Assembly (NCBI GenBank): GCA_002423605.1
Contig: DIKK01000022.1
Coordinates: forward strand, 34,882-98,881
Source of the DNA: Dehalococcoidia bacterium UBA5620
GTDB taxonomy: Bacteria; Chloroflexota; Dehalococcoidia; GIF9; UBA5629
Direction: 5' to 3'
Length of the DNA: 64,000 nt
In this document: positions 622 to 15,468 of the stretch, piece after piece
How positions within the stretch are numbered: the first letter of the stretch is position 1
Layout: each line of letters begins with the position of its first letter
Position numbers and translations under genes: made by a program
The notes under the pieces: generated by a model
Database searches by the model: none
Told to the model about the DNA's origin: nothing
The model's input: only the letters and a program-made list of their open reading frames with translations

Positions 622-652
622 TTAAAAATATAACAGTTATTATTGTATAATA
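622..652 (+). promoter_or_regulatory. Candidate sigma70-type promoter with extended -10 (TGTATAAT) for the MTase-HNH operon
   Basis: TGnTATAAT at 644-651 and a weak -35 TTAAAA about 17 nt upstream. The start codon at 667 follows a GAGGAG RBS. Confidence 0.4.
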
Positions 653-666
653 CGAGGAGAACAAAT

Positions 667-1581: not shown

Positions 1582-1583
1582 TT

Positions 1584-2318: not shown

Positions 2319-2579
2319 CATGGATTATGGTTCATATTAGATTGCACGGTAAGACATCACGCAATACTATTGCCTCCGTTGTTTATAGAATGCCCGATGT
2401 ACGCAGAGTAAGGCTTGCACGTTATTAAAAATATCAATAAAACAGCAACAAATCCTTTTCCGTGTTTCGCCCAATCATTCTTCTATATAATTGATGCCCT
2501 GTTTTAGACCCCCCTGTATCCCCATCTTCCCCTTCATCTGAGATTTCCAATTTTCCCTGGATGGTTTACGATTTTCAGC

Positions 2580-2753
2580 ATGGATAAACGCACTGAGCGT
2601 ATCTTTTACACGTTCAAAGAGGCCATGGAACATCTGGCGGTTAGCAGATACACGCTGCGCAAGCTGATGAGGTCAGGGCTACCGAGCCACAGGATAGGTA
2701 GGAAAATCGTGTTTCTGAAAGAAGATGTAGCGGACTGGATAAAAAGGCACTAA
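2580..2753 (+). CDS. Excisionase-like HTH DNA-binding protein, 57 aa, paralog 1
   Basis: MDKRTERIFYTFKEAMEHLAVSRYTLRKLMRSGLPSHRIGRKIVFLKEDVADWIKRH. Matches the excisionase/MerR-type HTH pattern. Shares a conserved leader (ttcccctggatggtttacgattttcagcaATG) with the copies at 6469 and 13351. Confidence 0.7.
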   Translation: MDKRTERIFYTFKEAMEHLAVSRYTLRKLMRSGLPSHRIGRKIVFLKEDVADWIKRH

Positions 2754-2878
2754 ATCTCATTCAGAACAGCAGTTTGATGCAAGAAACGCAAAATGATATT
2801 GTTAGGCACAGCCGGAGGCGCATAGTCGGTAAAGATAGTTTTCTGCTTACTTCTAAGTAAAAGGAGAATGCGATATAT

Positions 2879-3457
2879 ATGAGTGCAAGTATTATTGCGG
2901 CCATAGTAGTTATTATTGCCATTGAGTGTTACTACATAATATCGGAGATTAGGCTTGCCGCCCGCACTACACGGGGAACGGACAATACCCTTGATAAGGG
3001 AACGAGGCGACTTGTCTGGAGGCTTAGTGCAATCTCTTACAATATGGCGTGGATCCCCGTAATATTTGACTTCGGCCGCCTGATTATTCTGGGTGGCTGG
3101 CTAACATGGGTGGGCGTAGCTATCATGATTTTTGGTATTGTATTCCGGCAATATGCTATTTCTACCCTGGGGAAGTTCTTTACAGCAACAATACAGATTA
3201 AAAATGACCACGAATTAATCCAGACCGGCCCCTACCGCTATATCCGGCATCCGTCATACCTGGGAATACTCATCATGACCTTGGGTTTAGGAATTGCCCT
3301 AGCCAACTGGATTTCCCTGATACTATGTATAGTGCTTCCTACCATCGGCTTGATGCAGCGCATCAAGTTTGAGGAGAAGGAATTGGAACAGCACTTTGGT
3401 AACCAATACCAGGACTACAGGAAAAACACTTGGCGTGTTATCCCGTACATATATTAA
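2879..3457 (+). CDS. Isoprenylcysteine carboxyl methyltransferase (ICMT/PEMT) family membrane protein
   Basis: Multi-TM protein. C-terminal signature TGPYRYIRHPSYLGILI...EEKELEQHFG. Confidence 0.75.
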   Translation: MSASIIAAIVVIIAIECYYIISEIRLAARTTRGTDNTLDKGTRRLVWRLSAISYNMAWIPVIFDFGRLIILGGWLTWVGVAIMIFGIVFRQYAISTLGKFFTATIQIKNDHELIQTGPYRYIRHPSYLGILIMTLGLGIALANWISLILCIVLPTIGLMQRIKFEEKELEQHFGNQYQDYRKNTWRVIPYIY

Positions 3458-3514
3458 ATCGGGCTTATATATTGGACACAGGCCAGATGGAAGATGGGGA
3501 GGCACTACATCCCT

Positions 3515-3566
3515 CCTTTGACGCTTTCCCTGCCGCTTCCCGGCGGTGGTACTAACTGTGGCGACC
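3515..3566. repeat. R2 repeat copy: a highly degraded integrase 3'-end/att scar
   Basis: cctttgacgctttccctgccgcttcccggcggtggtactaactgtggcga. About 80% identical to the 3' tail of the integrase remnants (ttgacgctcccctgccgctcc...ccccgacggcagcac). Further copies at 4597-4648 and 8014-8065. Confidence 0.5.
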
Positions 3567-3652
3567 TGTCCCCTTAATCTACAGGCTGACATGGAAGCTG
3601 GACTGATTTTAGGGGGGCGGGTCAGGCTAGTACTACACGGGATGATGTGACT

Positions 3653-3817
3653 GTGTCTAGAAGTGACTTCAGCGAGAGCATGTGGTTTACATTTACCGAG
3701 ACCCAGGAGTTCTTGGATGTCAGACATCAGACTATATATAAGCTCATGGAATCGGGCTTGCCATCTCACAAGATAGGCAAGAAGCGGGTCTTTCTAAAGG
3801 ACGACCTGGTAGAATAG
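3653..3817 (+). CDS. Divergent excisionase-like HTH protein (GTG start 3653, or ATG 3680)
   Basis: ...MWFTFTETQEFLDVRHQTIYKLMESGLPSHKIGKKRVFLKDDLVE. Same fold signature (LPSH+IG+K+VFLK+D) as the 57-aa paralogs. Sits directly downstream of an R2 copy. Confidence 0.55.
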   Translation: MSRSDFSESMWFTFTETQEFLDVRHQTIYKLMESGLPSHKIGKKRVFLKDDLVE

Positions 3818-3917
3818 ATTAAAGAACACTAACCGAATTTAACTCCTAAACACTTAAGCTCTGTCATACTAAGGTTGCGATAGCGCTGTAATACTTTGTT
3901 ATGCCGCGACTCATTAC

Positions 3918-4334
3918 TTATTTAGTTAAGTGGTAGCCTTCATCAGTCAGTGCTTTTCTAGCAGCGTTTCTTTGGCCAAGAGAGGCTCCATTATTTCTGG
4001 CGAATATGAGCACCTTGTCGAGTATTGCCCTAATTCCAGCCTTATCATTGCGATCAGGTAATGTCCAAGAGGAGGAAGCACCGTCTTGGAATTCGATATG
4101 AAGCTGATTGTTATGAATCTGAGAGGTCATTCTTTGTTTGGCGATTGACCTACCACGTCCTGTTGAGGTTCGATAAGAACTTCCTCCGTCTCCAGTGAGC
4201 GTTTGAATTCCCTCATACGTCGAATTCGGAGGCAATTCAAATACACGTCTAAGAACGTCATCCTCAGTCTCTCCAAATTTACCACGACCTGCGATAGCTT
4301 GCCAGACTTCTTCAGATATTTTAATAGTACGCAT
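3918..4334 (-). CDS. Hypothetical protein, island cargo
   Basis: 138-aa ORF MRTIKISEEVWQAIAGRGKFGETEDDVLRRVFELPP.... No motif I can assign. Confidence 0.45.
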   Translation of the reverse strand: MRTIKISEEVWQAIAGRGKFGETEDDVLRRVFELPPNSTYEGIQTLTGDGGSSYRTSTGRGRSIAKQRMTSQIHNNQLHIEFQDGASSSWTLPDRNDKAGIRAILDKVLIFARNNGASLGQRNAARKALTDEGYHLTK

Positions 4335-4596
4335 AAGTAACTCCTTAATAAGTATTACTTCTTATATTATCACTACTTCTTATAGAAGTCAAGCGCCTTT
4401 TAAGATAAGTAAATCGGAATGTCCTATTTACAGGTAAGTTTTCCTACGTGTCGTTTGGTTGGGGGTGACTTCTATTGAATTAACTATTTAATAGCGAGGA
4501 TTGTATTTGAAATGATGACATGACGATGCAAGGGCACCAGCTTATACTGAGAGCACACATTATTAGGCCAACCTCATCTCAGCGGGTTCTCATCTC

Positions 4597-4648
4597 CCCT
4601 TTGCCGCTCCCGTGCCGCTTCCGCGCCGTGGTACTAACTGTGGCGATC
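4597..4648. repeat. R2 repeat copy
   Basis: ctttgccgctcccgtgccgcttccgcgccgtggtactaactgtggcga. Followed about 75 nt later by the tRNA-like fragment, the same arrangement as at 8014. Confidence 0.5.
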
Positions 4649-4728
4649 TGTGGTCACACGTATATTGGGCCAATACAGGACGGTATTTAATGATATTCCA
4701 CGGGATGGGACGGTATGTCTGGCTCATC

Positions 4729-4766
4729 GTTACGAAACCGCTGCTCTACCACTGAGCTACGCTGGC
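4729..4766 (-). other. tRNA 5'-half-like fragment (acceptor strand, D arm and anticodon loop; reads as Thr-CGU-like). Not an intact tRNA.
   Basis: Minus strand GCCAGCG TA GCTC AGTGGTA GAGC A GCGGT TTCGTAA, then no complementary anticodon-stem 3' strand, no T arm and no acceptor 3' strand. Lies 12 nt downstream of the integrase-remnant stop. Confidence 0.55.
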
Positions 4767-4781
4767 GCTCACGATGCAGGG

Positions 4782-4967
4782 TTAAAGTTTTGACGCTCCC
4801 CTGACGCTCCGGGCTACCCCCGACGGCAGCACTTCATCAAGTAACGCCATGGCATCTTCCTGCATGCCAGATATTATATGTGAATATGTATCCATGGTAA
4901 AGGCTACGCTGGCATGTCCCAGAGCCTCAGAAATCACCTTGGGCTTGGCTCCCACATGGAGTCCCAA
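4782..4967 (-). pseudogene. Tyrosine recombinase (phage-integrase family) C-terminal remnant
   Basis: ...KPKVISEALGHASVAFTMDTYSHIISGMQEDAMALLDEVLPSGVARSVRGASKL*. Carries the catalytic-Tyr box. Only about 60 aa; the upstream part is non-coding. Confidence 0.75.
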
Positions 4968-5250
4968 GTAATGGGAAACTATGCAGACCCGTCAGACCCT
5001 GCAGGTATGAATTTATAATCCTGGTGTGTGATGCAGCCCATTATTATTTTATTGCTATTGTCGCCATGTTTGAGACCCGGTGGGGGTCGCAGGAATCATC
5101 CGCATCCGTGGCATTATTGGAATACTGGATGCAGTCTGTGTGTGTTGCGGCCTGCTGTTTGAGCGTCAGCCGAGCGTCCGTGTATTTGGTCGTCAGGATG
5201 GACAGCGGGTTGGGAGACCGCCGTCCACTATACATCTCAATGCCCAGATT
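4968..5250. repeat. R3 conserved non-coding block, copy 1 of 2
   Basis: About 85% identical over ~250 nt to 11160-11400 (cagcccattatt.ttttattgc...ccatgtttgagacccggtgggggt.gcagga...). No convincing protein in any frame. Confidence 0.5.
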
Positions 5251-5439
5251 ATTGCATCTGGTGGGCAAAGGCCTATTCCAGATTGACCTGTTCTTGAGGT
5301 CATTGTGCTTGTGGGACTAGTTGAAAAAGTGGTATAAGTATTGACGGAAGGCTCAAGATGGCTTTGACAGGCGTTGACTTTGCATAACGTCAATATAGTT
5401 TATTACATCTATACAGTATAATATTGGCCCTGAGAATAG

Positions 5440-6201
5440 ATGCTAAAAAGAAAGAGGCAAAACTACTTCAGCCTAATTTTCTCAGTAATTACTGCCATCC
5501 TGTCGATAGCTGCCATCTGTATATCAATAATAGCTGTTCGTCAATCCGAAAAAGCAAACTTACTATCTGAAATCGTAAATTCACCTATTATCGTAGTGAC
5601 AAACACAAACGAATTTGATTTCGCTACCCGCCAAGGCACCGAGAAGGTATCCATCATGAATACTGGCGGCCCGATAAGAGAATATACCTCTGGTTTCGCG
5701 TATATAATAGAAATATACTGCGTCTGTAGAAATAGTGGAGGAATGTTTAATGAAGGGCTGGAGTTGGAATTTAACGGTTATTTCGATACGGTTCAACGAA
5801 GTAATTCTCTTCAAGGTATAATCGAAACTGCCTGGTGTGATAATAACTACGGTAAAGACCTGGCGCTAAGTGATGAATTTGACGACGCTGCTGCCAAAGA
5901 TGGCTATAGTTACAGCATCAGATCCCGTAAATTAGTATGGATTAGTTATAAAAATTTCTTAGGGAATGAATATATGAAAGCCTTTAGCATAAACCCTTAT
6001 ACTAATACGAATACGGCATCAGAAATACATTATCAATCTTTTAGAGACAAAGCGTTACTACCGTCCTTTATGAACGCGAATGAACCAAAAAGCAAAGGTG
6101 TATCTTGTGATTTAAATACAACCACAGGAACACAGCTATGGGACTGGTACAAAAATCGTGGATTAGGTGACGATTGTCGTTCTGATTGTGCTGGTAGATA
6201 G
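5440..6201 (+). CDS. Hypothetical membrane-anchored protein, island cargo
   Basis: 253-aa ORF with an N-terminal TM helix (LIFSVITAILSIAAICISIIAV), a Cys-rich C-terminus, and lower GC than the backbone. Confidence 0.45.
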   Translation: MLKRKRQNYFSLIFSVITAILSIAAICISIIAVRQSEKANLLSEIVNSPIIVVTNTNEFDFATRQGTEKVSIMNTGGPIREYTSGFAYIIEIYCVCRNSGGMFNEGLELEFNGYFDTVQRSNSLQGIIETAWCDNNYGKDLALSDEFDDAAAKDGYSYSIRSRKLVWISYKNFLGNEYMKAFSINPYTNTNTASEIHYQSFRDKALLPSFMNANEPKSKGVSCDLNTTTGTQLWDWYKNRGLGDDCRSDCAGR

Positions 6202-6468
6202 AATTGATAATCCGCTTCAGCACCTGACCTGCTTCCCAATACTCATACCATCTCTTAAGTCACTCCCACAAGCACTTAGGCATGCCAATAAACTGATTGG
6301 CATGCCCCCCGTGCTAGCTATAACATGCAGGGAAGGATCCGGGTTTGTTATTTAACCTATCATTGTTTATGCCGTTATCTCCAATGTTTTAGACCCACCC
6401 CCATATCTCCCATCTTCCCCTTCATCTTAGCTTTCCAATTTCCCCTGGATGGTTTACGATTTTCAGCA

Positions 6469-6651
6469 ATGGATAAACGCACTGGGCGTATCTTCTACAC
6501 GTTCAAAGAGGCTATGAATCATCTGGCGGTTAGCAGGTACACGTTGCGCAAGCTGATGAAGTCAGGGCTACCAAGCCACAGGATAGGTAGAAAGATCGTG
6601 TTCCTGAAAGAAGACGTGGCCGACTGGATAAAAAGGCAGAGCCCTCAGTAA
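6469..6651 (+). CDS. Excisionase-like HTH protein, paralog 2 (60 aa)
   Basis: MDKRTGRIFYTFKEAMNHLAVSRYTLRKLMKSGLPSHRIGRKIVFLKEDVADWIKRQSPQ. Same leader as paralog 1. Confidence 0.7.
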   Translation: MDKRTGRIFYTFKEAMNHLAVSRYTLRKLMKSGLPSHRIGRKIVFLKEDVADWIKRQSPQ

Positions 6652-6772
6652 TCCGAGCTTCCGCTAGATCGCATCACTGAAGGCCGGAGATGGCGATGCT
6701 ACCTGACTCGACGATTAAGAGTCCTTGTTGGCCATATTCTAGGCTTGCGTCAAATATATAAGCTAGGACTCT

Positions 6773-7933
6773 TTATTCGAACTTAAAGCCCTTATTCTTG
6801 AAAACTATCAAACAGGCATCCACTACATCGGCGTCGTAGAGTCTACCTCTGTTTTGTGAAATCTCCTCCAGTGCCTTATCTATGCCTAGCGCTGGGCGGT
6901 AAGGACGGTGAGAAGACATGGCCTCAACCACATCGGCAACAGCCAAGATTCTAGCCTCTAGGGAAATGTCTTCTCCAGAAAGACCGTTAGGATAGCCAGA
7001 ACCATTCAGCTTTTCATGGTGTTGGAGTATCGCCTGGGCAACTGGCCAAGGGAAATTTACCCCTTTCAGTATATCATGAGCGACTTGTGGATGAGTCTGA
7101 ATAATACCGAGTTCATGATTGCCTAACTTACCAGGTTTGCTCAAAATTTCGGATGGCACAGCTACTTTCCCAATGTCGTGGATGAGCCCTATAATACGTA
7201 TTCCCTCAATCTGGTCTTCTGAAAGACCCACCTCAGTGGCAATAGCACAAGAGAGCCGAGCTACTCGCTTTTGGTGAGATGCAGTATAGGGATCCCTGCT
7301 CTCACATAGGATTATTATGGAGTTAACGGTTTCACTAAACGTCACTCGTGAACTATCGAAATCTTGTAGAATTCCTGTTTCCCGTTTTGTTAGCCCTACT
7401 ACAGTAGCTGAGCGTCCTTCCATCTTGACAGAGAACTCAACCTTTCCATTAGTAATAACATTTCTGTCTTTGGCAGTAAAGAGCTTAATAGCTATATTAT
7501 CAGCCAGTTGCAGTTTATAAGTCTGTCCTTTATAAGCTTTGAACATCAGGAAAAACCATAGGAATAAGGTTAAGGCAATCACAATCCAGTACAAGACGAC
7601 TAGGAACCAATAGAGAGTATCATTGGCGATTTTAACTAAGCTCAGAACTATAATCGGCACGGTGAGTATTCCAAAGGTTACAATTGATTGACGAGCGTGG
7701 AAGCGAACGAAGCTATCTTCTCTCTTTATAATTAGCAGAATTATTCCAGATATCCAGCCAAGTGAATAGCAGAGAAGTCCAGCAATATTAGGTCGCAGGT
7801 AGGTAACAGCAGTTATATACCATACTCTTGTCTTACAGATCGCCACTTTACTGTTACGGTAAAGCTCTTTAATGTAATCGACTGCCTTTGTAACTATAAC
7901 GTTCACTGAATATCGCATCTCTCTAATTTGCAT
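6773..7933 (-). CDS. Membrane-anchored HD-GYP domain protein (predicted c-di-GMP phosphodiesterase)
   Basis: N-terminal TM helices. HD domain HDIGKVAVP ... HHEKLNGSGYP (HD-GYP signature). Confidence 0.75.
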   Translation of the reverse strand: MQIREMRYSVNVIVTKAVDYIKELYRNSKVAICKTRVWYITAVTYLRPNIAGLLCYSLGWISGIILLIIKREDSFVRFHARQSIVTFGILTVPIIVLSLVKIANDTLYWFLVVLYWIVIALTLFLWFFLMFKAYKGQTYKLQLADNIAIKLFTAKDRNVITNGKVEFSVKMEGRSATVVGLTKRETGILQDFDSSRVTFSETVNSIIILCESRDPYTASHQKRVARLSCAIATEVGLSEDQIEGIRIIGLIHDIGKVAVPSEILSKPGKLGNHELGIIQTHPQVAHDILKGVNFPWPVAQAILQHHEKLNGSGYPNGLSGEDISLEARILAVADVVEAMSSHRPYRPALGIDKALEEISQNRGRLYDADVVDACLIVFKNKGFKFE

Positions 7934-8013
7934 TATTATCCCATGCGCACTAAGCTGTCCCCAAGTATTTATACCACTTCCTAAGTTAGTCGTGCAAGAG
8001 ATTGAACTTACCC

Positions 8014-8065
8014 TATTTGGACGCTTTCCACGCCGCTCCCCGGCGGTGGTACGAACTGTGGCGAT
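8014..8065. repeat. R2 repeat copy
   Basis: tatttggacgctttccacgccgctccccggcggtggtacgaactgtggcga. Confidence 0.5.
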
Positions 8066-8147
8066 ATATGGTAACCCGTATATAAGACCAATACAGGGCT
8101 ATATCAAACAATATCTAACAGGATAGGATTGTATGTCTGGCTCCTCG

Positions 8148-8184
8148 TTACGAAACCGCTGCTCTACCACTGAGCTACGCTGGC
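8148..8184 (-). other. tRNA 5'-half-like fragment, copy 2
   Basis: Identical core to copy 1: GCCAGCGTAGCTCAGTGGTAGAGCAGCGGTTTCGTAA. Confidence 0.55.
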
Positions 8185-8199
8185 CCGCACGATGCGGGG

Positions 8200-8385
8200 T
8201 TAAAGTTTTGACGCTCCCCTGCCGCTCCGAGCTACCCCCGACGGCAGCACCTCATCAAGCAACGCCATGGCATCTTCCTGCAGCCCCGATATTATATGCG
8301 AGTAGACATCCATTGTAAAAGCTACGCTAGAATGTCCTAGGGCTTCTGAAATGACTTTAGGCTTTGCCCTACGCATCAAGGTCAC
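8200..8385 (-). pseudogene. Tyrosine recombinase C-terminal remnant
   Basis: MTLMRRAKPKVISEALGHSSVAFTMDVYSHIISGLQEDAMALLDEVLPSGVARSGRGASKL*. Confidence 0.75.
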
Positions 8386-8442
8386 TAGCGAAGATGTACC
8401 GTGGGTCGTGACTTATGCTCTCTAGGCTTGCCCGTCAGAGTG

Positions 8443-10665
8443 TCATTGACCATTTGATTCTGCAGTTCCTCTACTATAGCCTTCTTCTGCTAGCTTCTCC
8501 ATGATGCGGGCGGCTCTAGGGTAGCCGATACGTAGACGGCGCTGCAAAAAGGAACTTGAGATGTTTTTATGTTCTTGGGCTAACTGTCTGGCAGCTTCCA
8601 GCATTGCGTCTTCGCCGTTTTTTTCGGTTGAAGCAAGTTCACTCATCTCCTCGAATCTGAGTGGTTTCATCTCGGGTCTTTTTTGATTACCCCAGAACGA
8701 TACTATCCTCTCTATTTCAGCATCGGAGATAAAAGTCCCCTGAAGACGTTTTGGTTTGCTGGCATCTGTGGGCATATAAAGCATATCGCCTCTGCCCAGC
8801 AGCTTTTCAGCTCCAGCAGCATCAAGGATGGTTCTTGAGTCCACCTGTGAAGTGAGCGCAAAACTTATACGTGTTGGGAAGTTAGCTTTGATGAGACCGG
8901 TGACCACGTCGACAGACGGACGCTGGGTCGCTACGACCATATGGATACCGGTAGCCCGGGCTAGTTGAGCTAAACGGCAAAGAGTATGCTCCACCTCGTC
9001 GAAAGCTGCCATCATCAGGTCAGCTAGCTCGTCGATAACCACCACTATATAGGGCATTGTGTCTCCGTAATGTCGATTTGTGTTGTAGCTATCGATGTTA
9101 CGTGCGCCGGCCCGGGCGAACTTGTTATAGCGGTTGTCCATCTCCTGGTTAAGCCAACGTAACGCCAGGATTGCTTTATCAGAATCTACAACCACAGGAG
9201 CTGCCAGATGAGGCAGGCTATTAAAATTAACCAGCTCCACGCGTTTTGGATCAATCATAATGCACTGGACATCATCGGGGGTATTGTGGATAAGAAGGCA
9301 GCAGATGATCGAGTTGAGACAGGCGGTCTTACCACTGCCGGTGGCTCCAGCAATAAGCAGATGGGGCATTCTATCCAGATAGCCAGCTACTGTTTCTCCT
9401 CCAGCTCCCTTGCCCAAAGCCAGAGCCAGTTTTGATTTGGCATGCGCTTTTTGAAAGGCGGAGCTCTCAATTACGCCCCGCAGATTGACCAAACTAAAGG
9501 TAGTATTTGGTACCTCGATGCCTACCACTGATTTTCCTGGCACTGGAGCTTCGATTCTGATGCTTGGCGCAGCCAGTGCCAGAGCTAGGTCGTTAGCCAG
9601 GGCGCTAATACGGTCAACTTTAACTCTAGTTTTTGACACCTCCTCCAGGCGGGTTATATCATTGCCAAATTCATCGCGCTCTCGGATTTTTTTGTATTTG
9701 CGGTCCCATCCAGGCTCGACTCCGAACTGGGTTACGGTAGGGCCGACATTGATCTGGACTACTTTAGCCTCAACGCCGTAGCTGTTTATAGCTTCTTCGA
9801 TGAGCTGTGCACGCTTCTCAACATCACTCTGGTTTAGCTCTATTTCCGTGGGCTTATTCAGGATATTTACCGGGGGTAAGCACCAGCCACCGGTGGTAAA
9901 TATCGATTGGTATTTTCTTGGCTCCCATGACTCGGGAGCAGGTACTTTGCGTGTTGGTGGAGGGGTGACAAAAGGAGGTTCTGTGTTGGTCTGTTTTTCC
10001 TCGGGAACGTGCATCTCTGTTTTTAGAGGCGTGACACTAATGACTTCTGTAACCAGCTGTATTTCCCTGGGAGCTAGGGCTGCCAGTGCTGCTGCGGGTA
10101 TGATACTAAGGGCTTGCATAACTACCTGTATTTCCTTTGGGGAAGGCACTGCCGGTATTGCTGGGGGTATGATGCTAATGGCTTGTGAAACAGGTTGTTC
10201 TTCCTCGATAGCAGGTGCTTCGGCTGCAGGTTGAGGCGTGGCGATGATGTCTTGCATAGCTGGTTGCTCTTCCTCAGGAGCAGGCACTTCGTCTGTTGTT
10301 GGAGATGCACTACTGCGGGCTTGTGAAACAGGTTGTTCTTCCTCGGTAGCAGGTACTTCAGCTGCAGGTTGAGGCGTGATACTAGGGGTCTGCGTAACTG
10401 GCTGATTTTCCTCGACATTGGAAAGTCCGAAGAATTTTGTTACCGGGTCAGGTTTGGCTTTAGGCGGCCGATGGCCGGTGACACTTTGCGGTGTTGGTGT
10501 AGTTGATGGTCTGGTTGGTTGTGGCTTGTGAGGTTTCTGCTGCTGTTGTTCCGCTCGATGCTTGTTCCCAAAAAGTAAGCCACAACTCGGGCAGCGACCA
10601 GATGCCTTATTTGTCTTGATACCACATCGCGGGCAATCGTTAAGGTGGTTTGTAGCGTTGTCCAT
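8443..10665 (-). CDS. ftsK: FtsK/SpoIIIE-family DNA translocase with an N-terminal C4 zinc ribbon, no TM domain, and a long Pro/Glu-rich repeat linker
   Basis: CPRCG...CPSCG at the N-terminus. Walker A GATGSGKT, Walker B VVVIDELADL. C-terminal gamma-like winged helix (SSFLQRRLRIGYPRAARIMEKLAEEGY). Confidence 0.85.
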   Translation of the reverse strand: MDNATNHLNDCPRCGIKTNKASGRCPSCGLLFGNKHRAEQQQQKPHKPQPTRPSTTPTPQSVTGHRPPKAKPDPVTKFFGLSNVEENQPVTQTPSITPQPAAEVPATEEEQPVSQARSSASPTTDEVPAPEEEQPAMQDIIATPQPAAEAPAIEEEQPVSQAISIIPPAIPAVPSPKEIQVVMQALSIIPAAALAALAPREIQLVTEVISVTPLKTEMHVPEEKQTNTEPPFVTPPPTRKVPAPESWEPRKYQSIFTTGGWCLPPVNILNKPTEIELNQSDVEKRAQLIEEAINSYGVEAKVVQINVGPTVTQFGVEPGWDRKYKKIRERDEFGNDITRLEEVSKTRVKVDRISALANDLALALAAPSIRIEAPVPGKSVVGIEVPNTTFSLVNLRGVIESSAFQKAHAKSKLALALGKGAGGETVAGYLDRMPHLLIAGATGSGKTACLNSIICCLLIHNTPDDVQCIMIDPKRVELVNFNSLPHLAAPVVVDSDKAILALRWLNQEMDNRYNKFARAGARNIDSYNTNRHYGDTMPYIVVVIDELADLMMAAFDEVEHTLCRLAQLARATGIHMVVATQRPSVDVVTGLIKANFPTRISFALTSQVDSRTILDAAGAEKLLGRGDMLYMPTDASKPKRLQGTFISDAEIERIVSFWGNQKRPEMKPLRFEEMSELASTEKNGEDAMLEAARQLAQEHKNISSSFLQRRLRIGYPRAARIMEKLAEEGYSRGTAESNGQ
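10060..10420. repeat. Roughly 141-bp tandem DNA repeat, about 2.5 copies, encoding the FtsK linker repeats
   Basis: gcttgtgaaacaggttgttcttcctcg.tagcaggt.cttc.gctgcaggttgaggcgtg recurs at about 10178 and about 10319. Confidence 0.6.
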
Positions 10666-10907
10666 ATGGGATGGCTGTGGTGCCTTCTTTACGGCAGCCT
10701 TCTTCCTATAGCTTTTCCATGATTCTGGTGAAATGCATCAAATATTTGTACCACTTTTTGAGTTAGTCCTGCAAATATAATAGCCTAAGGAGCGAGTTAT
10801 CTTAGTTAGCATTCTTTAGTGCATGCCACTGTCTTTAACGATTCTCTGCCATTAAGGTTTAGTAGTGTTTTGTATTGTTACATAATTTGGGCTGTTGATG
10901 AGAGTAT

Positions 10908-10942
10908 CGCGAACCGCTGCTCTACCACTGAGCTACGCTGGC
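10908..10942 (-). other. tRNA 5'-half-like fragment, copy 3 (ends in the anticodon-loop region)
   Basis: GCCAGCGTAGCTCAGTGGTAGAGCAGCGGTTCG, then divergent. Confidence 0.5.
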
Positions 10943-10957
10943 ATGCACGATGCGGGG

Positions 10958-11179
10958 TTAAAGTTTTGACGCTCCCCTGCCGCTCCAGTCTACCCCCGGC
11001 GGCAGCACCTCATCAAGGAGCGAAATTGCATCTTCCTGCATCCCCGATATTATATGCGAATAGGTGTCCATGGTAAAGGCTACGCTGGCATGTCCCGGAG
11101 CCTCGGAAATGACCCTGGGCTTTGCTCCCACATGGAGTCCCAAGTAATGGGAAACTATGTAGACCCTGCAGGTATGCAT
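10958..11179 (-). pseudogene. Tyrosine recombinase C-terminal remnant
   Basis: ...IVSHYLGLHVGAKPRVISEAPGHASVAFTMDTYSHIISGMQEDAISLLDEVLPPGVDWSGRGASKL*. Confidence 0.7.
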
Positions 11180-11400
11180 CTATGCTCCGGGTTTGTGTTT
11201 CAGCCCATTATTGTTTTATTGCCATGTTTGAGACCCGGTGGGGGTAGCAGGAAACATCCTCACCTATGGCATTATTTGAATACTGGACGCGGTCTGTCGG
11301 TGTGTGTGTTGCGACCTGCTGTCCGAGCGTCAACCGAGCGTCAGGATATGTGGCTGTCAGGATAGACAGCGGATCAGCAGACCGCCGCTCAATATGCTGA
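11160..11400. repeat. R3 conserved non-coding block, copy 2
   Basis: See 4968-5250. Confidence 0.5.
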
Positions 11401-11786
11401 CGTTAATAACAGGTATAACATTAAGACCATTATCTGAAGCAGGCAGAATACAATACGGTATGACCTAATAGTGCACTTAGATATCGGCCTCCTGCTCTGG
11501 AAGCTGTATCGGTAGCATCTCCAACTCAAGAGGTGATACACTTCTTTGGGACAGGCCTAAGTAAATAATTCCGCTATAGTGAATCATTTTACGGGGCTAT
11601 CAGGACTCATCACTGGATATCGCTGACAGCACACCGGCATAGGTATTCATACTAGGCATTGAAAGAATAAATAAAGTATTGTAGAATTATGATGTAAGCG
11701 CAATTGAACCTATTCTTGGTGCAACCATTTTACTGGTCTAAGAATGTGTGTTATCTTATTTCTGGGTGTAAGATATTTAGTGGTAG

Positions 11787-13127
11787 ATGACGTTGAAACC
11801 TAGAGGACTGTTCGTAAAAAAGCAAGAAGCACCACTTCAACAGATTGCGGAACTTCCTATCCGTGAAGGTCTCCTGAATTATTTCGATGATCTTCCTATT
11901 GGCATAAATACCGTGGATATCCTGGGCAATTTTACCTATGTTAACAAGAGATTTCTGGAAGTATCAGGTTATTCCAAAGAGGAAGTTATTGGAAAGAACG
12001 GGTTAAAAATTGGCTTGTTTCCCCCAGATAGCTTAAAACGCTTAGCCAAAAGGATGCGGGCTAGGTTATCTGGAAAACCCTCGCAATATTTGGAGCTTCA
12101 GTTCAAATGCAAGGATGGCAGGTTGATCTGGGTAGAGCTTGAAGCTAGGTTGCTCAAAAATCATGGTTTTCCAATCGGCTTTCAAATTACTTCAAGGGAC
12201 ATCACCTATCGTAAGCAAGCTGAGGAGATGCTTGCCGACGAAGCGAACCGATGGCGTATGCTAATGCAACAGTCCAGAGACGGGATAGTTATCATCGATG
12301 AGGACGGCAAGGTGCATGAGGCAAACCAGCGTTTTGCCGAGATGCTCGGATATTCTCCCGATGAAGTCAGCCAGCTATACTTATGGGATTGGGATACTCA
12401 ATATACACGTGAGCAACTGCTCGAGATGGTGCGGACTGTTAGCGAGGCGGGCGACCATTTCGAGACATACCACCGTCGTAAGGACGGTACTACTATTGAT
12501 GTTGAAATCAGCAGCAATGGGGCTATGTTTGCAGGACATAAACTGATTTTCTGCGTGTGTCGTGATATAAGCGAACGCAAGAAGGCAGACGAGGCTATAA
12601 AGAGAGTTAATAAGCAGTTAATGGAATCGTCCAACCATGATATTATGACCGGCTTGCCAAATAGAAGGTTATTATATGAACATTTTGACATAGCACTGGC
12701 GAGTGCACAGCGAAACAAGAAAATACTGGCAACAATATCCCTCGATCTTGACAAATTCAAGGCTATAAATGACGCATTTGGTCATGACGTAGGAGATAAG
12801 CTATTAGTTGCCGCTGCAGACCGGATGACCAGCATTTTACGTAAGACTGATACAGTTGCCCGCATGGGCGGAGATGAATTTGTTGTGCTTTTATGGGATC
12901 TTGACCATAAAAGCACAACAGTTAAAGTTGCACAAAAAATATTAGAGGGGTTCCGACAACCGTTCAGTGTTGATGGTCACACGCTTAATAATACTGTCAG
13001 TGTGGGCGTCGCAATATATCCGGAAAATGGCAGTAACATCGAAGAATTGCTGAAGAGTTCCGATAAATCACTGTATCGAGTAAAAGAAAGTGGCAGGAAT
13101 AATTATCAATTGTCTGCTAGCAGCTAA
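11787..13127 (+). CDS. PAS-PAS-GGDEF diguanylate cyclase
   Basis: Two PAS blocks followed by GGDEF (RMGGDEFVVLL). The last ~450 nt are about 90% identical, in inverted orientation, to the 3' end of the 15469-18423 gene. Confidence 0.85.
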   Translation: MTLKPRGLFVKKQEAPLQQIAELPIREGLLNYFDDLPIGINTVDILGNFTYVNKRFLEVSGYSKEEVIGKNGLKIGLFPPDSLKRLAKRMRARLSGKPSQYLELQFKCKDGRLIWVELEARLLKNHGFPIGFQITSRDITYRKQAEEMLADEANRWRMLMQQSRDGIVIIDEDGKVHEANQRFAEMLGYSPDEVSQLYLWDWDTQYTREQLLEMVRTVSEAGDHFETYHRRKDGTTIDVEISSNGAMFAGHKLIFCVCRDISERKKADEAIKRVNKQLMESSNHDIMTGLPNRRLLYEHFDIALASAQRNKKILATISLDLDKFKAINDAFGHDVGDKLLVAAADRMTSILRKTDTVARMGGDEFVVLLWDLDHKSTTVKVAQKILEGFRQPFSVDGHTLNNTVSVGVAIYPENGSNIEELLKSSDKSLYRVKESGRNNYQLSASS

Positions 13128-13350
13128 TTCCGTAATTAAACGCAAAAGTAATCCCTTCTGCCATATCCGAGCAGATAACCTGTTTTACGCAGCGCTAGCT
13201 GGCTGTAACATGCATAGCTAAATCCGTGTTTGTCATTTGACCTGTCGTTCTTTATGCCGCCATCTCCCACGTTTTAGACCCCTGTATACCCCACCTTGCT
13301 ATTCATCTCAGCTTTCCAAATTTCCCCCGGATGGTTTACGATTTTCAGCA

Positions 13351-13523
13351 ATGGACAAGCGCACCGAACGGATCTTCTACACGTTCACAGAAGCTATGAA
13401 TCATTTGGCAGTCAGCAGGTACACGCTGCGCAAGCTGATGAAGTCAGGGCTACCGAGCCACAGATAGGTATAAAGATCGTGTTCCTTAAGGACGATGTGG
13501 CTGAGTGGATAAAGAGGCACTAG
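13351..13523 (+). pseudogene. Excisionase-like HTH gene, paralog 3, disrupted
   Basis: MDKRTERIFYTFTEAMNHLAVSRYTLRKLMKSGLPSHR* (TAG), then out of frame IGIKIVFLKDDVAEWIKRH. Confidence 0.6.
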
Positions 13524-13591
13524 ATTTTGTCACTGAAGGCTGGAGGCGAGCAGAGCAGTGATACTCCCTGAGTCGATGATTAAGATATAGT

Positions 13592-13879
13592 TTATGGGCG
13601 GTAAGTAGTCTCGGTACGGCGGGTTATCTGGATTATAAGCACCAACTTCTGAGAATCGTACACTTCGTAGACAACTCTGTAGTTGCCGGCTCTTATTCTA
13701 TAGGCTGCCTCGGCGCCTTTGATTTTTCTGACGCCATGGGGACGTGGTTCAACGGCTAAGGCTACAATGGAGAAGCTTAGACGCTCGAAATCGTGGAGTC
13801 GTATTCGGCCTTTCAGTTTTTGTAGGTCACGATCAGCGGCAGGTGATACTTCGATGCGGTACGCTTTTGGCTTGTTCAT
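13592..13879 (-). CDS. RelE/ParE-family toxin
   Basis: 95 aa, YRIEVSPAADRDLQKL...YRIRAGNYRVVYEV. Immediately downstream of a small RHH-like gene. Confidence 0.7.
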   Translation of the reverse strand: MNKPKAYRIEVSPAADRDLQKLKGRIRLHDFERLSFSIVALAVEPRPHGVRKIKGAEAAYRIRAGNYRVVYEVYDSQKLVLIIQITRRTETTYRP

Positions 13880-13887
13880 TGGCTGAA

Positions 13888-14148
13888 TTACGTTTTGCTT
13901 TCACGTTTGGTCAGCGCCTCTGTCATCTCCCTCTCTACCTCAGCCCAGGGACGACCACCTTTTTCCTCCCATTCAGCTCGGGCAGCATCGATTACAGGCA
14001 ATAGCTCAGCATCCTCCCTGTTTTCCAGCCACTCAAGTACAGCTTCACTGACTATATCGCTGGCAGGCTTGCGCCGCCTCACGGCCTCTACTTTCAGATT
14101 GGTGTAGAGGTCATCATCGTGAAAGACTACGGTCATTCTTCTGCTCAT
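13888..14148 (-). CDS. RHH/CopG-type antitoxin (start taken at MSRRM; the track ORF is longer)
   Basis: MTVVFHDDDLYTNLKVEAVRRRKPASDIVSEAVLEWLE. Confidence 0.55.
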   Translation of the reverse strand: MSRRMTVVFHDDDLYTNLKVEAVRRRKPASDIVSEAVLEWLENREDAELLPVIDAARAEWEEKGGRPWAEVEREMTEALTKRESKT

Positions 14149-14232
14149 CGGTATCCTCCATTCAAGCGTATAGGCATAAAAGCATACACGTGCATGTATT
14201 GTATCAATAGATGTTTTGGCAGTCAACTTCTA

Positions 14233-14502
14233 TCAGTCATATGTAGGTGGACTCGCCTCCTCCTTTGACATTTCCATGCCGCTCCGGGCCACCCCCGACG
14301 GCAGCACCTCATCTAATAGCGCCATGGCATCTTCCTGCATGCTATGATAGACGTCCATCGTAAAGGCAACGGAGGCATGCCTCAGGGCCTCGGAAATCAC
14401 CTTGGGCATTGATACCGAAGTGCGTGTTATAGATTTACGATACGATAACATTATGGGAATAGCCCATAATGTACTTGACAAAATATATAGTGTGCTGTAC
14501 AC
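14233..14502 (-). pseudogene. Tyrosine recombinase C-terminal remnant (diverged 3' tail, no adjacent tRNA-like piece)
   Basis: ...MPKVISEALRHASVAFTMDVYHSMQEDAMALLDEVLPSGVARSG.... Confidence 0.6.
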
Positions 14503-14534
14503 TTAGCATACGATACTATACAGGAGGCATCGGA

Positions 14535-14915
14535 ATGAAAATAAGTAGATATCGTATTTACAAGGCGATCATAGGAGGTGGGCTGGGTGCTGCTGTGGGA
14601 ATTGCGGTTGCTACTGACACCGCCATAATTGCGCTGGTGGCGGTTGTTGTAGCTATTGTAATTGCGGTTATTCTGGAACGTAGAAACAAGGAGATAGTTC
14701 GGGATGAGCGAATCTTGCAGATCGGCAGGAAAGCTACTTCTACCTCTTTCTATGGCATGCTTATTCTGGCGGGAGTCGCCTCATTGGGCACCGCCCTTTT
14801 CCGCAACCAGTTGCCGGAGAGTGTTGTTTTTGCTGGTTCTATCATGGGCTATTTTGTCTGTGTTGCATTAATACTATATATGTGTTTGTACGCCTATTTC
14901 AGCCGGAAGCTATAG
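14535..14915 (+). CDS. DUF2178-like small membrane protein
   Basis: MKISRYRIYKAIIGGGLGAAVGIAVAT..., three or four TM helices. Abuts an XRE regulator, the usual pairing for this family. Confidence 0.55.
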   Translation: MKISRYRIYKAIIGGGLGAAVGIAVATDTAIIALVAVVVAIVIAVILERRNKEIVRDERILQIGRKATSTSFYGMLILAGVASLGTALFRNQLPESVVFAGSIMGYFVCVALILYMCLYAYFSRKL

Positions 14916-14916
14916 G

Positions 14917-15162
14917 GTGCGACAGATGAAAAACAGGCTAAAGGTATTTCGTGCCATGCATGACCTCACACAGGAGGCGCTGGCCGATCAATTGCGCGTG
15001 ACCAGGCAGACGGTCGTTTCCATCGAAAATGGTAAATACGATCCTTCCCTGCCGCTTGCTTTTCGTATCGCCAATCTTTTTAATGTAAAAATTGAGGACG
15101 TCTTTTTATACGAAGGTGAACCGGGTGAATTTCATGGCTATCCACCCATGTCTAAGAAGTAG
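14917..15162 (+). CDS. XRE-family HTH transcriptional regulator
   Basis: LTQEALADQLRVTRQTVVSIENGKYDPSLPLAFRIANLF. Confidence 0.8.
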   Translation: MRQMKNRLKVFRAMHDLTQEALADQLRVTRQTVVSIENGKYDPSLPLAFRIANLFNVKIEDVFLYEGEPGEFHGYPPMSKK

Positions 15163-15227
15163 CGCCTATTTATATAGGGATACCATCTGCGCAGTTGTTA
15201 AAAGCCGTGCCAGGTGCAGAATCGATG

Positions 15228-15245
15228 CCACTGAGCTACGCTGGC
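15228..15245 (-). other. Truncated tRNA-like fragment (acceptor 5' strand plus start of D arm only)
   Basis: GCCAGCGTAGCTCAGTGG, then unrelated sequence. Confidence 0.4.
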
Positions 15246-15260
15246 ACGCACGATGCGTGG

Positions 15261-15420
15261 TTAAAGATTTGACGCTCCCCCTGCCGCTCCGTGCTACCCC
15301 CGACGGCAGCATCTCATCAAGGAGCGACATCGCATCTTCCTGCATGCTATGAGTAGACGTCCATTGTAAAAGCAGCTGAGCTATGTCCTAGCGCCTCCGA
15401 TATTACTTTAGGCTTTGCGT
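15261..15420 (-). pseudogene. Tyrosine recombinase C-terminal remnant, copy 5
   Basis: Complement encodes ...KPKVISEALGHSSAAFTMDVYSHSMQEDAMSLLDEM...; below the ORF-track size cutoff. Confidence 0.55.
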
Positions 15421-15468
15421 CTCTTAATGGCATATGACTGGCAAAGGTATTCTTAGGCTCTTTGATAA

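Follow-up and report, generated by a model that had tools for sequence, protein, structure and literature searches.

In archaeal SSV-type elements attP lies within the integrase ORF, so that the gene is split on integration, and SXT inserts at the 5' end of prfC, supplying a new 5' end. The dusA-specific integrases behave likewise, the element entering the 5' end of the gene and supplying its new 5' end (PMC4482086). Arrays of tDNA islands have a tyrosine integrase beside the tDNA and a displaced fragment at the far end, and arise by re-integration into the restored site; a recognised minority, 159 of the 3919 islands in Islander, have 5' tDNA fragments, an Islander array requires its own integrase for each member, and only four arrays of at least three were found (PMC4383910, PMC7192596). 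In Dehalococcoides mccartyi, ssrA-specific islands are stacked at one small-RNA gene, with repeats of 20 bp of ssrA, and the tRNA-Arg island is marked by a 58-bp repeat of the 3' end (PMC3146451, PMC2764846). At tRNA-Ala, a direct repeat was found alongside a truncated homologue of the neighbouring recombinase gene (PMC2764846).

The locus described here was analysed in a 64-kb stretch of DNA, referred to as the window. As a whole it is probably best explained as a tandem array of small integrative elements, ~20.8-21 kb long, all at a single tRNA-Thr(CGU) target.

The array and its units

The window covers the distal 15.5 kb of the ~20.8-kb array, and the rest lies to its left. No intact tRNA was found within the 64-kb window. 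The intact integrase and true target called for in the original prediction are both present 5.2-8.4 kb left of the window in the extended contig (L001), where the live tRNA-Thr(CGU) and a full-length 384-aa integrase adjoin hisS; the integrase (L001 3191-4342) stops 16 nt upstream of the tRNA. The self-comparison that had been suggested recovered the repeat families independently by repeat search and self-BLAST. A second contig, from a different metagenome, shows 100% identity across 20.7 kb and a third assembly crosses the junction at 4782. Since these independent assemblies are identical, the array is no assembly artefact.

The array comprises ~7 units, only one of which has a full integrase, and the cargo differs in every unit. 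The youngest unit lies beside the tRNA and decay is greatest at the far end, an order supported by the observations, albeit one that need not be strictly chronological, as a new element can also enter internal junctions (PMC7192596). U1, the only autonomous element, has its distal part at 1-3569 and extends a further 5.3 kb beyond the left edge of the window, as far as the integrase and the tRNA. Within the window it encodes a D12 DNA methyltransferase (643-1581, plus strand), an HNH protein (1584-2318, plus), excisionase-like HTH_17 gene 1 (2580-2753, plus) and an ICMT-family methyltransferase (2879-3457, plus), and it carries the P'-arm site pair R2' (3511-3564, minus). The heavily reduced U2 (3647-4334), from which its own integrase end and tRNA half are absent, keeps a divergent excisionase-like HTH_17 gene 2 (3647-3817, plus) and a 138-aa ORF whose N-terminus is SeqA_N-like (3918-4334, minus). 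A P' arm (4591-4729, minus), made up of spacer X (4652-4729) and R2 (4591-4651), follows beside a tRNA-half copy. The body of U3 (5440-7933) contains a 253-aa ORF with no function assigned (5440-6201, plus), an intact HTH_17 gene 3 (6469-6651, plus) and an HD-GYP-type HD_5 protein (6773-7933, minus); its P' arm, again spacer X and R2 (8011-8064), spans 8011-8147 on the minus strand. U4 is a single FtsK-family translocase gene (8443-10665, minus) encoding alpha, motor and gamma domains behind a zinc-ribbon and Pro-rich N-terminus. In U5 (11161-14226), the segment "seg" (11161-11395) is accompanied by a PAS-GGDEF gene (11787-13127, plus), a frameshifted HTH_17 gene 4 (13351-13523, plus), a ParE toxin (13592-13879, minus) and its likely antitoxin (13888-14226, minus). 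The cargo of U6 (14469-15162, plus) is a DUF2178 membrane protein and an HTH_3 (XRE-type) regulator. The outermost scar (15228-15454, minus), an 18-nt tRNA 5' end plus an integrase remnant, abuts the stop codon of a flanking 984-aa PAS-GGDEF gene (15469-18423). The HTH_17 protein clears the TIGR01764 cut-off for the excisionase family.

The conserved non-coding backbone segment "seg" is found at 4994-5231 (minus strand) as well as in U5 and in U1 (L001 7606-7849). The copy at 4994-5231 carries an inverted arm-type motif pair (5162-5179) and abuts an integrase remnant, which marks the place where ~4.2 kb, with the primase-helicase module and the N-terminal part of the integrase, has been deleted.

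Integrase remnants, tRNA halves and attachment sites

The integrase has three parts, an N-terminal extension, a SAM-like core-binding domain and a catalytic domain, and its closest solved relative by sequence is Tn1549 Int (6EN0, E 3e-15). Using the full-length protein (L001 3191-4342) as tblastn query, the five minus-strand C-terminal remnants expected from the original prediction were all recovered in the window, and no N-terminal fragments were found among the matches. The remnants at 4782-4967 (match 4788-4967, residues 324-383, 93% amino-acid identity) and 8200-8403 (match 8206-8403, residues 319-383, 85%) have intact frames. The remnant at 10958-11143 (match 10964-11143, residues 324-383, 83%) has accumulated further non-synonymous changes, one of which turns L into P in the ALGH motif. 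At 14263-14406 (residues 332-383, 79%, 4-aa gap) a 12-nt deletion takes out the -10 box discussed below and the tail is altered, and at 15268-15454 (residues 318-383) the match is split by a frameshift caused by an 11-nt deletion, which likewise takes out the -10 box. A Tyr box and GASKL-stop tail had been ascribed to four remnants; three are intact, but the fourth, at 15268, is frameshifted and keeps the tail only at the DNA level.

Displaced copies of nt 1-37 of tRNA-Thr(CGU), from acceptor stem to anticodon loop, lie at 4730-4766 and 8148-8184, each identical to the live gene at 37 of 37 positions. A displaced 31-nt 5' fragment (10912-10942, 31/31 nt) ends in the anticodon loop without an X/R2 block after it, and an 18-nt piece of the 5' end lies at 15228-15245 (all minus strand); no tRNA fragment was found after the 14263-14406 remnant. 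Four remnants are thus followed by a tRNA copy, as claimed, although with lengths of 37, 37, 31 and 18 nt rather than ~38 nt throughout. The point at which the displaced copies stop, nt 37, is within the anticodon loop.

The course of integration can be read from the sequences. The elements belong to a family found across Dehalococcoidia in which the tyrosine integrase gene lies at the very end of the element, reading into the tRNA, and the element brings its own copy of the tRNA 5' half, with the anticodon loop as crossover point. Integration thus rebuilds the tRNA from the element's 5' half and the chromosomal 3' half, with the old 5' half displaced to the far end of the element. Every later integration into the rebuilt tRNA shifts outward the integrase 3' end and tRNA 5' half of the unit before it, giving a stack; such outward displacement had been predicted and agrees with the rise in decay away from the live tRNA. 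The further idea, that each insertion truncates the preceding integrase, was rejected: entry at the anticodon loop falls downstream of the integrase stop codon, whereas the missing side is N-terminal, and the truncations are consequently internal deletions.

Repeat and motif searches confirmed three R2 copies (3511-3564, 4593-4646 and 8011-8064) resembling the integrase tail. Their interpretation as older, decayed scars was abandoned, since two of the three lie at a fixed distance, ~85-140 nt, past a tRNA-half copy (the motif pair ~105-135 nt past the core) inside a conserved block, other genomes have the same arrangement, and the motif tracks each element's own integrase tail, also in unrelated elements. 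In two subfamilies it switches in step at the integrase tail and beyond the far-end repeat, being of AGCGKCA type in one and TAACGCCAA type in the other. This co-variation points to R2 as putative tandem arm-type integrase sites on the second arm of attP. The tandem motif AGCGGCAcgggAGCGGCA occupies 4602-4619 within R2 (4591-4651), and P-arm motif pairs lie inside the integrase remnants at 4791-4808, 8209-8226 and 10967-10984; overall, the motif pair occurs 8 times in the window, where 1.24 occurrences are expected, and 9 times in L001, where 0.52 are. Judging from these co-varying repeats, the first arm of attP would be two arm-type sites of 7-9 nt in tandem, repeating every 11 nt, within the final ~35 nt of the integrase ORF; the core would be the tRNA 5' half, and the second arm would be a further pair of the same motif beyond the core, with the small HTH_17 excisionase gene near it. 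The arm-type reading is based on these DNA motifs; the 64-aa N-terminal region of the integrase gave no match to an arm-binding domain model.

Propagation of the units and persistence of integrase stubs

The remnants at 14263 and 15268 have a common 11/12-nt deletion directly after the Tyr codon, and those at 4782 and 10958 have one common deletion junction plus ~260 nt beyond it. These shared defects show that some dead remnants propagated after dying, which explains part of the array, the route being trans-mobilisation or local duplication. The scars are serial, as predicted and as the synonymous-dominated divergence and differing cargo indicate, but not fully independent.

It is possible, though less likely than not, that most units are satellites that never had a full integrase here and were inserted singly, with cis-acting parts only (both attP arms, core, "seg" and excisionase), by an integrase acting in trans. 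Such a reading varies the best explanation and does not oppose it. One illegitimate junction, in which the seg hairpin "...ACTCCATGT" is fused to codon 328 of the integrase, is common to U3 and U5 despite ~17% divergence and different cargo, and perfect 37-nt repeats enclose U3, which has both arm-site pairs and an intact excisionase gene. Moreover, mini-elements of 2-3.4 kb with truncated integrases and tRNA 5' repeats at their ends occur elsewhere (L024, L030, L036, L040). Conversely, the junction in L036 differs, unequal crossing-over inside the array would look alike, and the exact U3/U5 junction had no match in viral contigs or the metagenome scan, a weak objection as the metagenome collection evidently lacks the source contigs too. 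In the main reading as well, U3 and U5 appear to descend from one integrase-less ancestor and, as they retain both arms, core, excisionase gene and "seg", may have been mobilised in trans by the intact integrase.

It is very unlikely that a single unit of dead integrase end plus tRNA half was duplicated in tandem, followed by divergence and replacement of the intervening sequence. The defects shared by the two remnant pairs would fit such an origin, as would the recurrence of the backbone pieces (excisionase region, seg and X-R2). However, codons with synonymous changes outnumber those with non-synonymous ones by 13 to 2 and 21 to 4 in remnants against the intact gene (13:2, 21:4 and 17:4 over comparisons between remnants and with the live gene), which is not expected of dead DNA and argues that the remnants stem from separately evolving functional integrases. 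In addition, the tRNA copies closest to the tRNA are perfect at 37 nt and the outer ones eroded, every unit has different cargo, the live end holds an autonomous element of the same family, and many tRNAs of other genomes carry a single element with ends built in the same way. The predicted repeated, site-specific insertion of related elements at one hotspot is thus borne out by the synonymous-dominated divergence and the different cargo of each unit.

The codons for A-F-T ... H-I-I around the catalytic Tyr appear to form a candidate sigma-70-type promoter, TTTACA-17-TATAAT. The site reads TTTACC-17-TATAAT in the 4782 remnant (4873-4901) and TTTACA-17-TATAAT in the 8200 remnant (8291-8319; 11 of 12 consensus positions), and lies at 11049-11077 in the 10958 remnant. 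Around the live tRNA, a scan of 600 nt (L001 3050-3650, including the last ~460 nt of int) gave no other promoter-like match on the strand of the tRNA. TTTACN-17-TATAAT was found in 34/34 and 78/80 relatives, and the codons at the hexamers are nearly invariant (TTT 80/80, CAT 80/80, ATA 79/80) compared with 46%, 39% and 47% elsewhere in the same genes; the following Ile codon, with its third base outside the hexamer, varies freely. Both hexamers are kept in all 21 remnants adjoining live tRNAs, three of which (L041, L042, L046) are cut ≤10 nt from the -35, and in L043 the Tyr codon is gone, with both hexamers and the 17-nt spacing retained. In principle, such constraint at synonymous sites might also have a different function. 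After integration the embedded promoter would replace the displaced native one and drive the rebuilt tRNA. Older units would shed the primase-helicase module and integrase N-terminus through internal deletion; while a unit adjoins the live tRNA, deletions could not go past the promoter. We propose that ~40-130-aa C-terminal stubs persist for this reason and are later carried outward. The remnants in the window begin 13-27 codons upstream of the -35 and not at it, so the promoter limit would account for their minimum size, not their exact boundaries.

That the C-terminal ORFs were kept because the peptides themselves act, e.g. as decoys against incoming integrases, is highly improbable: three remnants have open frames and hundreds of 51-107-aa homologues, highly conserved in amino-acid sequence, are called as metagenome genes, but residues 321-360 are the most conserved stretch of the full-length family anyway (0.92-0.98 column identity), stub start points and start codons vary with unrelated junk upstream, L043 has lost the Tyr box as protein and not the hexamers, and the two outer copies are frameshifted or deleted.

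Relatives and known systems

The comparison set comprised 41 other genome loci and 80 metagenome loci (~120 Dehalococcoidia relatives). An integrase or remnant lies directly upstream of a co-oriented tRNA at 39/41 genome and 65/80 metagenome loci; the remaining loci have no co-oriented tRNA in the 250 nt downstream, and 5 of the 15 such metagenome contigs end <~400 nt from the gene. Nine tRNAs are targeted (Thr-cgt, Leu-taa, Trp-cca, Lys-ctt, Ser-tga, Arg-cct, Arg-tct, Phe-gaa and Met-cat), and complete elements bounded by a far-end repeat of tRNA nt 1-37/42 were found at L008, L009, L024, L030, L036, L040, L097, L115 and L121. A second multi-scar array was not seen in 121 related loci, which is weak evidence because most metagenome contigs break at such repeats.

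The locus resembles the Islander/TIGER arrays in its integrase next to the tDNA, displaced fragments and repeated integration at a restored site, but has ~7 units with one full integrase, the others carrying stubs. The published island descriptions searched mention neither a promoter embedded in the integrase ORF nor arm sites at its tail. The arrays of D. mccartyi, in the same class Dehalococcoidia, are similarly stacked at one small-RNA gene; the present family, unlike their ssrA and tRNA-Arg islands, lies on the 5' side of the tRNA, and its cargo is c-di-GMP signalling, toxin-antitoxin, restriction-modification and FtsK-like genes instead of reductive dehalogenases. As with dusA and SXT elements, the insertion lies upstream of its target and replaces the 5' part and expression signals, yet those elements target protein-coding genes, whereas the present ones target a tRNA and their replacement promoter apparently lies within the catalytic-Tyr codons of the integrase. 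Integrase fragments beside tRNA pieces, stacked at tRNA genes, recall the archaeal SSV-type int(N)/int(C) (reviewed in PMC8371274), except that here the tRNA piece follows the stop codon and the autonomous copy has an intact 384-aa gene. Lambda-type heterobivalent integrases with Xis share the core between arm motifs, the small excisionase-family gene and the three-part integrase; here the arm sites are deduced from sequence, one putative arm is within the integrase ORF and the N-terminal domain matches no arm-binding model. Pile-ups at tRNA genes are a well-known kind of feature, and the family-level variant found here is possibly undescribed: an integrase family that inserts on the 5' side of tRNA genes, which is unusual, and whose own coding sequence appears to contain a promoter driving the tRNA.

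The tandem array beside tRNA-Thr

The source contig, recovered via an exact-protein look-up, carries hisS and an intact tRNA-Thr(CGU) gene (3098-3172, minus strand, in coordinates of the contig locus L001, which exceed window positions by 8417) to the left of the window; within the window, no tRNA was found by ARAGORN or Rfam. A 384-aa tyrosine integrase ORF (L001 3188-4342) reads into this tRNA, its stop codon lying 16 nt upstream. The protein matches PF00589 (residues 171-353), PF14659 and PF22022, and the catalytic motifs HDLRHT and LGH...Y(351)SH are legible in its sequence. Residues 1-64, ahead of the SAM-like domain, matched no Pfam or NCBIfam model and were covered by no PDB match. Counting tandem units outward from the live tRNA, this gene belongs to U1 (L001 3136 to window 3569, 8.9 kb), together with a 158-aa ORF, a Prim-Pol/AAA_25 primase-helicase, Abi_C, a D12 methylase with HNH, an HTH_17 excisionase and an ICMT-family gene. 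U1 accordingly has what Islander looks for, a tyrosine integrase inside the island and adjoining an intact tDNA. The excisionase, a 57-aa HTH_17 protein, reaches 34.5 bits against TIGR01764, above the cut-off of 28.8; the array holds four copies, of which only the outermost is frameshifted, and tblastn gave no match to this gene in the loci of other genomes. The D12-class adenine methyltransferase is followed by an HNH protein with a winged-helix N-terminus (window 643-2318), and the Abi_C gene lies just outside the window. These genes are likely to constitute restriction-modification and abortive-infection defence cargo of the autonomous U1.

Repeat finding and self-BLAST confirmed the five minus-strand integrase remnants of the original prediction, at approximately 4.8, 8.2, 11.0, 14.3 and 15.3 kb, and also revealed three accompanying repeat families: the excisionase region, a ~50-nt repeat (R2) and a non-coding repeat of about 230 nt (seg). 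In tblastn with the 384-aa integrase, the window matched only at the five remnants, each covering just residues 318/332-383, and N-terminal integrase fragments were found neither in the window nor in its left flank. Pfam returned nothing at E ≤ 0.01 for the remnants alone because they are too short; their identity came from the full-length gene and database homologues. The tRNA 5' copies said to accompany four remnants at ~38 nt are indeed present after four of the five, although their lengths are 37, 37, 31 and 18 nt. Both 37-nt copies end in the anticodon loop, and all four minus-strand fragments (nt 1-37, 1-37, 1-31 and 1-18) lie upstream of the minus-strand tRNA, as Islander expects of tDNA fragments.

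Beyond U1, the reduced U2 (3647-4766) is devoid of its own integrase stub and tRNA fragment. U3 (4782-8184) consists of an integrase stub, seg, ORF253, an excisionase and HD-GYP; U4 (8200-10942) of a stub and an FtsK-like gene; U5 (10958 to ~14226) of a stub, seg, PAS-GGDEF, the frameshifted excisionase and ParE with its antitoxin; and U6 (14263-15245) of a stub, DUF2178 and HTH_3. An outer scar (15268-15454) lies directly against the 984-aa PAS-GGDEF gene that flanks the array. The tRNA copies shrink outward (37, 37, 31, none and 18 nt), and the stubs decay in the same direction, from intact frames through a Leu-to-Pro change and a 4-aa deletion to a frameshift. An assembly artefact can be dismissed, since a 20.7-kb stretch has an identical counterpart in a contig of another metagenome, and the 4782 junction is spanned in a third assembly. 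All assemblies recovered have the same integrated arrangement.

Several cargo genes have features of their own. The FtsK-family translocase gene (8443-10665, minus strand), the sole content of U4 between two scars, is complete (alpha, motor and gamma), with a zinc-ribbon and Pro-rich repeat N-terminus in place of membrane helices. It contains an internal 61-nt repeat (10180-10240 versus 10318-10378, 95%), and its G+C of 0.50 exceeds the 0.43-0.44 of neighbouring units. The U5 PAS-GGDEF (12564-13124) partially duplicates, in inverted orientation, the C-terminal region of the flanking 984-aa gene (15523-16083; ~83% over 500 nt), and at least some cargo may therefore stem from local duplication rather than import. 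The HD-GYP-type gene of U3 is a further instance of the c-di-GMP theme.

Repeated insertion of related elements, as originally proposed, accounts for part of this pattern. Compared with the live gene, the 4782 stub has 13 synonymous and 2 non-synonymous codon changes, the 8200 stub 21 and 4, and the 10958 stub 10 and 8. Change that is mostly synonymous indicates that the stubs diverged as working genes and decayed later, which fits separate arrivals. However, the scars are not all independent. U3 and U5 have one deletion junction in common, where the hairpin region beside seg ('...ACTCCATGT') is joined to integrase codon 328 with the loss of the primase-helicase module and the N-terminal part of the integrase, ~4.2 kb in all, and an 11/12-nt deletion is common to both outer stubs. 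Hence some units were copied after they had died, either through mobilisation in trans or through unequal crossing-over.

The exact U3/U5 junction had no match in viral contigs or the metagenome collection, and one relative, L036, which had appeared to share it, was rejected after alignment. At this junction, 36 nt (CATAGTTTCCCATTACTTGGGACTCCATGTGGGAGC; within 4930-4975 and 11106-11150, minus strand) are 100% identical, whereas the surrounding sequence is ~83% identical and predicts ~6 differences within the stretch. It holds the inverted repeat TCCCA-N5-TGGGA, and its identity could reflect either constraint or recent gene conversion.

Targets and putative attachment arms of the integrase family

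A scan of species-representative genomes yielded 42 loci and a metagenome scan 80 more. All but three of the former are titled Dehalococcoidia/-ales, Chloroflexota/Chloroflexi or 'uncultured Chloroflexia' MAGs, the exceptions being fragment loci binned as Aenigmatarchaeota, Deltaproteobacteria and 'bacterium'. An integrase or stub immediately precedes a tRNA of the same orientation in 39 of the 41 other genome loci and in 65 of the 80 metagenome loci; the remainder have no co-oriented tRNA within 250 nt, and 5 of the 15 such metagenome contigs end ≤ ~400 nt from the gene. Nine targets were recognized: Thr-cgt, Leu-taa, Trp-cca, Lys-ctt, Ser-tga, Arg-cct, Arg-tct, Phe-gaa and Met-cat. Where a contig holds both ends of an element, tRNA nt 1-37/42 recur as a direct repeat at the far end (partial, nt 1-30, in L020). 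Elements measure 6-11 kb (L008, L009, L097, L115 and L121), and mini-elements with a truncated integrase 2-3.4 kb (L024, L030, L036 and L040). IMG/VR gave one distant match only, so that these are not recognisable prophages.

A crossover inside the integrase gene, whether SSV-like or with icd-like restoration at codon ~320, was ruled out because the tRNA copies stop exactly in the anticodon loop, what precedes the far-end repeats of single elements is a native promoter and not integrase sequence, and the points of truncation in other genomes scatter over residues 253-345.

Two further arrangements were observed among relatives. In L020 (3816-4945), the integrase start directly follows the tRNA-Lys 5' repeat (nt 1-30), and the element is therefore little more than an integrase gene of ~1.1 kb. 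Some relatives carry a second, different integrase 3' of tRNA-Thr on the opposite strand (54% or 26% identical), and in other cases a short interval is approached by two converging family members; the loci with one or the other arrangement are L005 (11265-12422), L012 (11698-12309), L056 and L113. This tRNA can thus be a hotspot from both sides.

The last ~35 nt of the integrase ORF contain a short motif twice, 11 nt apart, which reads AGCGGCAggggAGCGTCA in the window's subfamily and TAACGCCAAatTAACGCCAA in most other members. The same pair recurs ~105-135 nt past the tRNA repeat at the far end, and its type invariably matches the integrase tail of the element concerned (TAACGCCAA in L008 and L009; AGCGKCA in L024, L040 and the window). 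The pair occurs 8 times in the window and 9 times in L001, against 1.24 and 0.52 expected from shuffled sequence. R2, which the original prediction took for older scars, is not a scar: the copies at 4591-4651 and 8011-8064 are the second motif pair beyond the tRNA half, and lie within a P' arm, made up of R2 and the spacer between it and the tRNA half, that is conserved between both junctions. The third copy (3511-3564) has no adjoining spacer or tRNA half and is probably the U1 arm after a deletion that took the U2/U1 junction. Of the components of a heterobivalent integrase system, a catalytic domain, arm-type repeats on both sides of the core and an excisionase are present, with arm binding predicted from sequence. 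R2 is thus a putative attP arm, and with co-varying repeats on either side of the core and a gene of the excisionase family close by, the predicted layout is of lambda type.

In subfamily B (L006-L035), a TTTAGCTTCA / TAGCTTCAA motif is conserved 10-20 nt ahead of every tRNA, irrespective of its species, and it recurs just past the P'-arm motif pair in L008 and L009; the window's subfamily has CTGCATCGTG in its place. The motif may serve as an additional site for protein binding or as a second promoter element. The seg repeat (4994-5231, 11161-11395 and L001 7606-7849) is 77-83% conserved across U1 and two integrase-less units, and every copy contains an inverted arm-type motif pair (5162-5179, 11326-11343 and L001 7759-7776). 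As it is kept in units without replication and integrase genes, seg may be a cis-acting site, e.g. a replication origin or operator. Three sequences gave no meaningful covariation for RNA structure in seg.

A predicted promoter within the integrase codons

A promoter scan of the tRNA strand identified TTTACC-17-TATAAT within the last 110 codons of the live integrase, and no other promoter-like match in the 600 nt from L001 3050 to 3650, an interval that covers only the last ~460 nt of the gene. The two hexamers coincide with codons Phe346-Thr347 and His353-Ile354-Ile355, on either side of the catalytic Tyr351. Among relatives, TTTACN-17-TATAAT was found in all 34 from the genome set whose upstream sequence is long enough and in 78 of 80 from metagenomes, the two exceptions being one base off. 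Codon choice within the hexamers is nearly invariant (TTT 80/80, CAT 80/80 and ATA 79/80), compared with 46%, 39% and 47% elsewhere in the same genes, and the Ile355 codon varies freely at its third base, which falls just beyond the -10 box (A/C/T = 28/18/34). Both hexamers and their spacing are also kept in 21 of 21 stubs beside live tRNAs; in three of the relatives' loci (L041, L042 and L046) the cut falls no more than 10 nt ahead of the -35 box, and another (L043) has lost the Tyr codon and kept the hexamers. In the window, promoter-like sites occur in the three inner stubs (4873-4901, 8291-8319 and 11049-11077), while the two outer stubs have no -10 box. The displaced tRNA half of single elements is preceded by an ordinary close-in -10 box and no integrase sequence, as expected for a first integration.

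From this conservation we infer that the predicted embedded promoter drives the rebuilt tRNA, the native promoter having been displaced with the old 5' half. A promoter needed by the tRNA would set a limit for deletions, and deletions that stop there would explain the hundreds of short C-terminal 'integrase' ORFs (51-107 aa) in the protein database, where the best 120 of 728 matches were all short. The stubs in the window start 13-27 codons ahead of the -35 box, and a limit at the promoter therefore leaves their exact ends unaccounted for.

A joint reading, which we hold tentatively and at slightly below an even chance, is that the family is partly irremovable. The integrase would target the 5' side of at least nine tRNA genes, displacing the native promoter, and would supply as replacement a consensus promoter written in synonymous positions of its own catalytic-Tyr codons; as the element decays, the integrase 3' stub would become an essential part of the host tRNA gene. 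In arrays, displaced stubs would stay as outward-firing promoters before the first gene of the next unit, and U3 and U5, lacking an integrase, would be satellites moved in trans. The HD-GYP, FtsK-like and ORF138 genes in the window are co-oriented with displaced stubs. Co-orientation of the displaced promoter with the first gene past the P' arm is not a general rule, as only four of seven other elements conform to it. If true, the joint reading would account for the orphan 'integrase' ORFs of 50-100 aa that Dehalococcoidia metagenomes contain by the hundreds, and it is suggested that such short genes in Dehalococcoidia genomes should not be taken as recent integration events. Promoter and protein-coding information would then overlap in the most conserved codons of the enzyme. 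Such a family-level mechanism is neat and testable, if not field-changing.

Comparison with known systems

For annotation, the hisS/tRNA-Thr locus is a strain-variable hotspot whose cargo comprises genes for c-di-GMP signalling, a toxin-antitoxin pair and probable restriction-modification. Together, the co-varying arm sites and 37-nt cores are candidate attP/attB for at least nine tRNA targets, and could serve integration tools in a group with almost no genetics.

The array differs from an integron, defined by IntI, attI and attC cassettes, as the integrase scores 48.9 bits against a cut-off of 265 and unit boundaries are tRNA halves rather than attC. Likewise, it is not a partitioned integrase of SSV type, in which attP lies in the ORF and the gene is split on integration, because the integrated U1 gene is unsplit and the tRNA-derived core lies 16-20 nt past its stop codon. 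The feature is a tandem tDNA island array, which is a known kind (PMC4383910, PMC7192596). Islander requires an integrase and a tDNA fragment for each member of a tandem array; here the full integrase occurs only in U1, the remaining units being reduced to stubs of 52-66 aa; stub and fragment are both missing from U2, and the far end of U5 (at the 14263 stub, which belongs to U6) has no tRNA fragment. Integration on the 5' side, shared by the present family, is a known but minor class, with 5' fragments in 159 of 3919 Islander islands (~4% of those mapped) and only four arrays of three or more (PMC4383910). A limited literature search found no description of the embedded promoter, of 5' targeting of multiple tRNAs or of arm sites in the integrase tail, and at most the combination of these three is new. 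The family is a clean example of an element living 5' of a tRNA gene. The array itself is an ordinary, textbook outcome of repeated tRNA-gene integration, with precedents within the same bacterial class in the stacked ssrA islands of Dehalococcoides and its tRNA-Ala repeat paired with a truncated recombinase (PMC3146451, PMC2764846).
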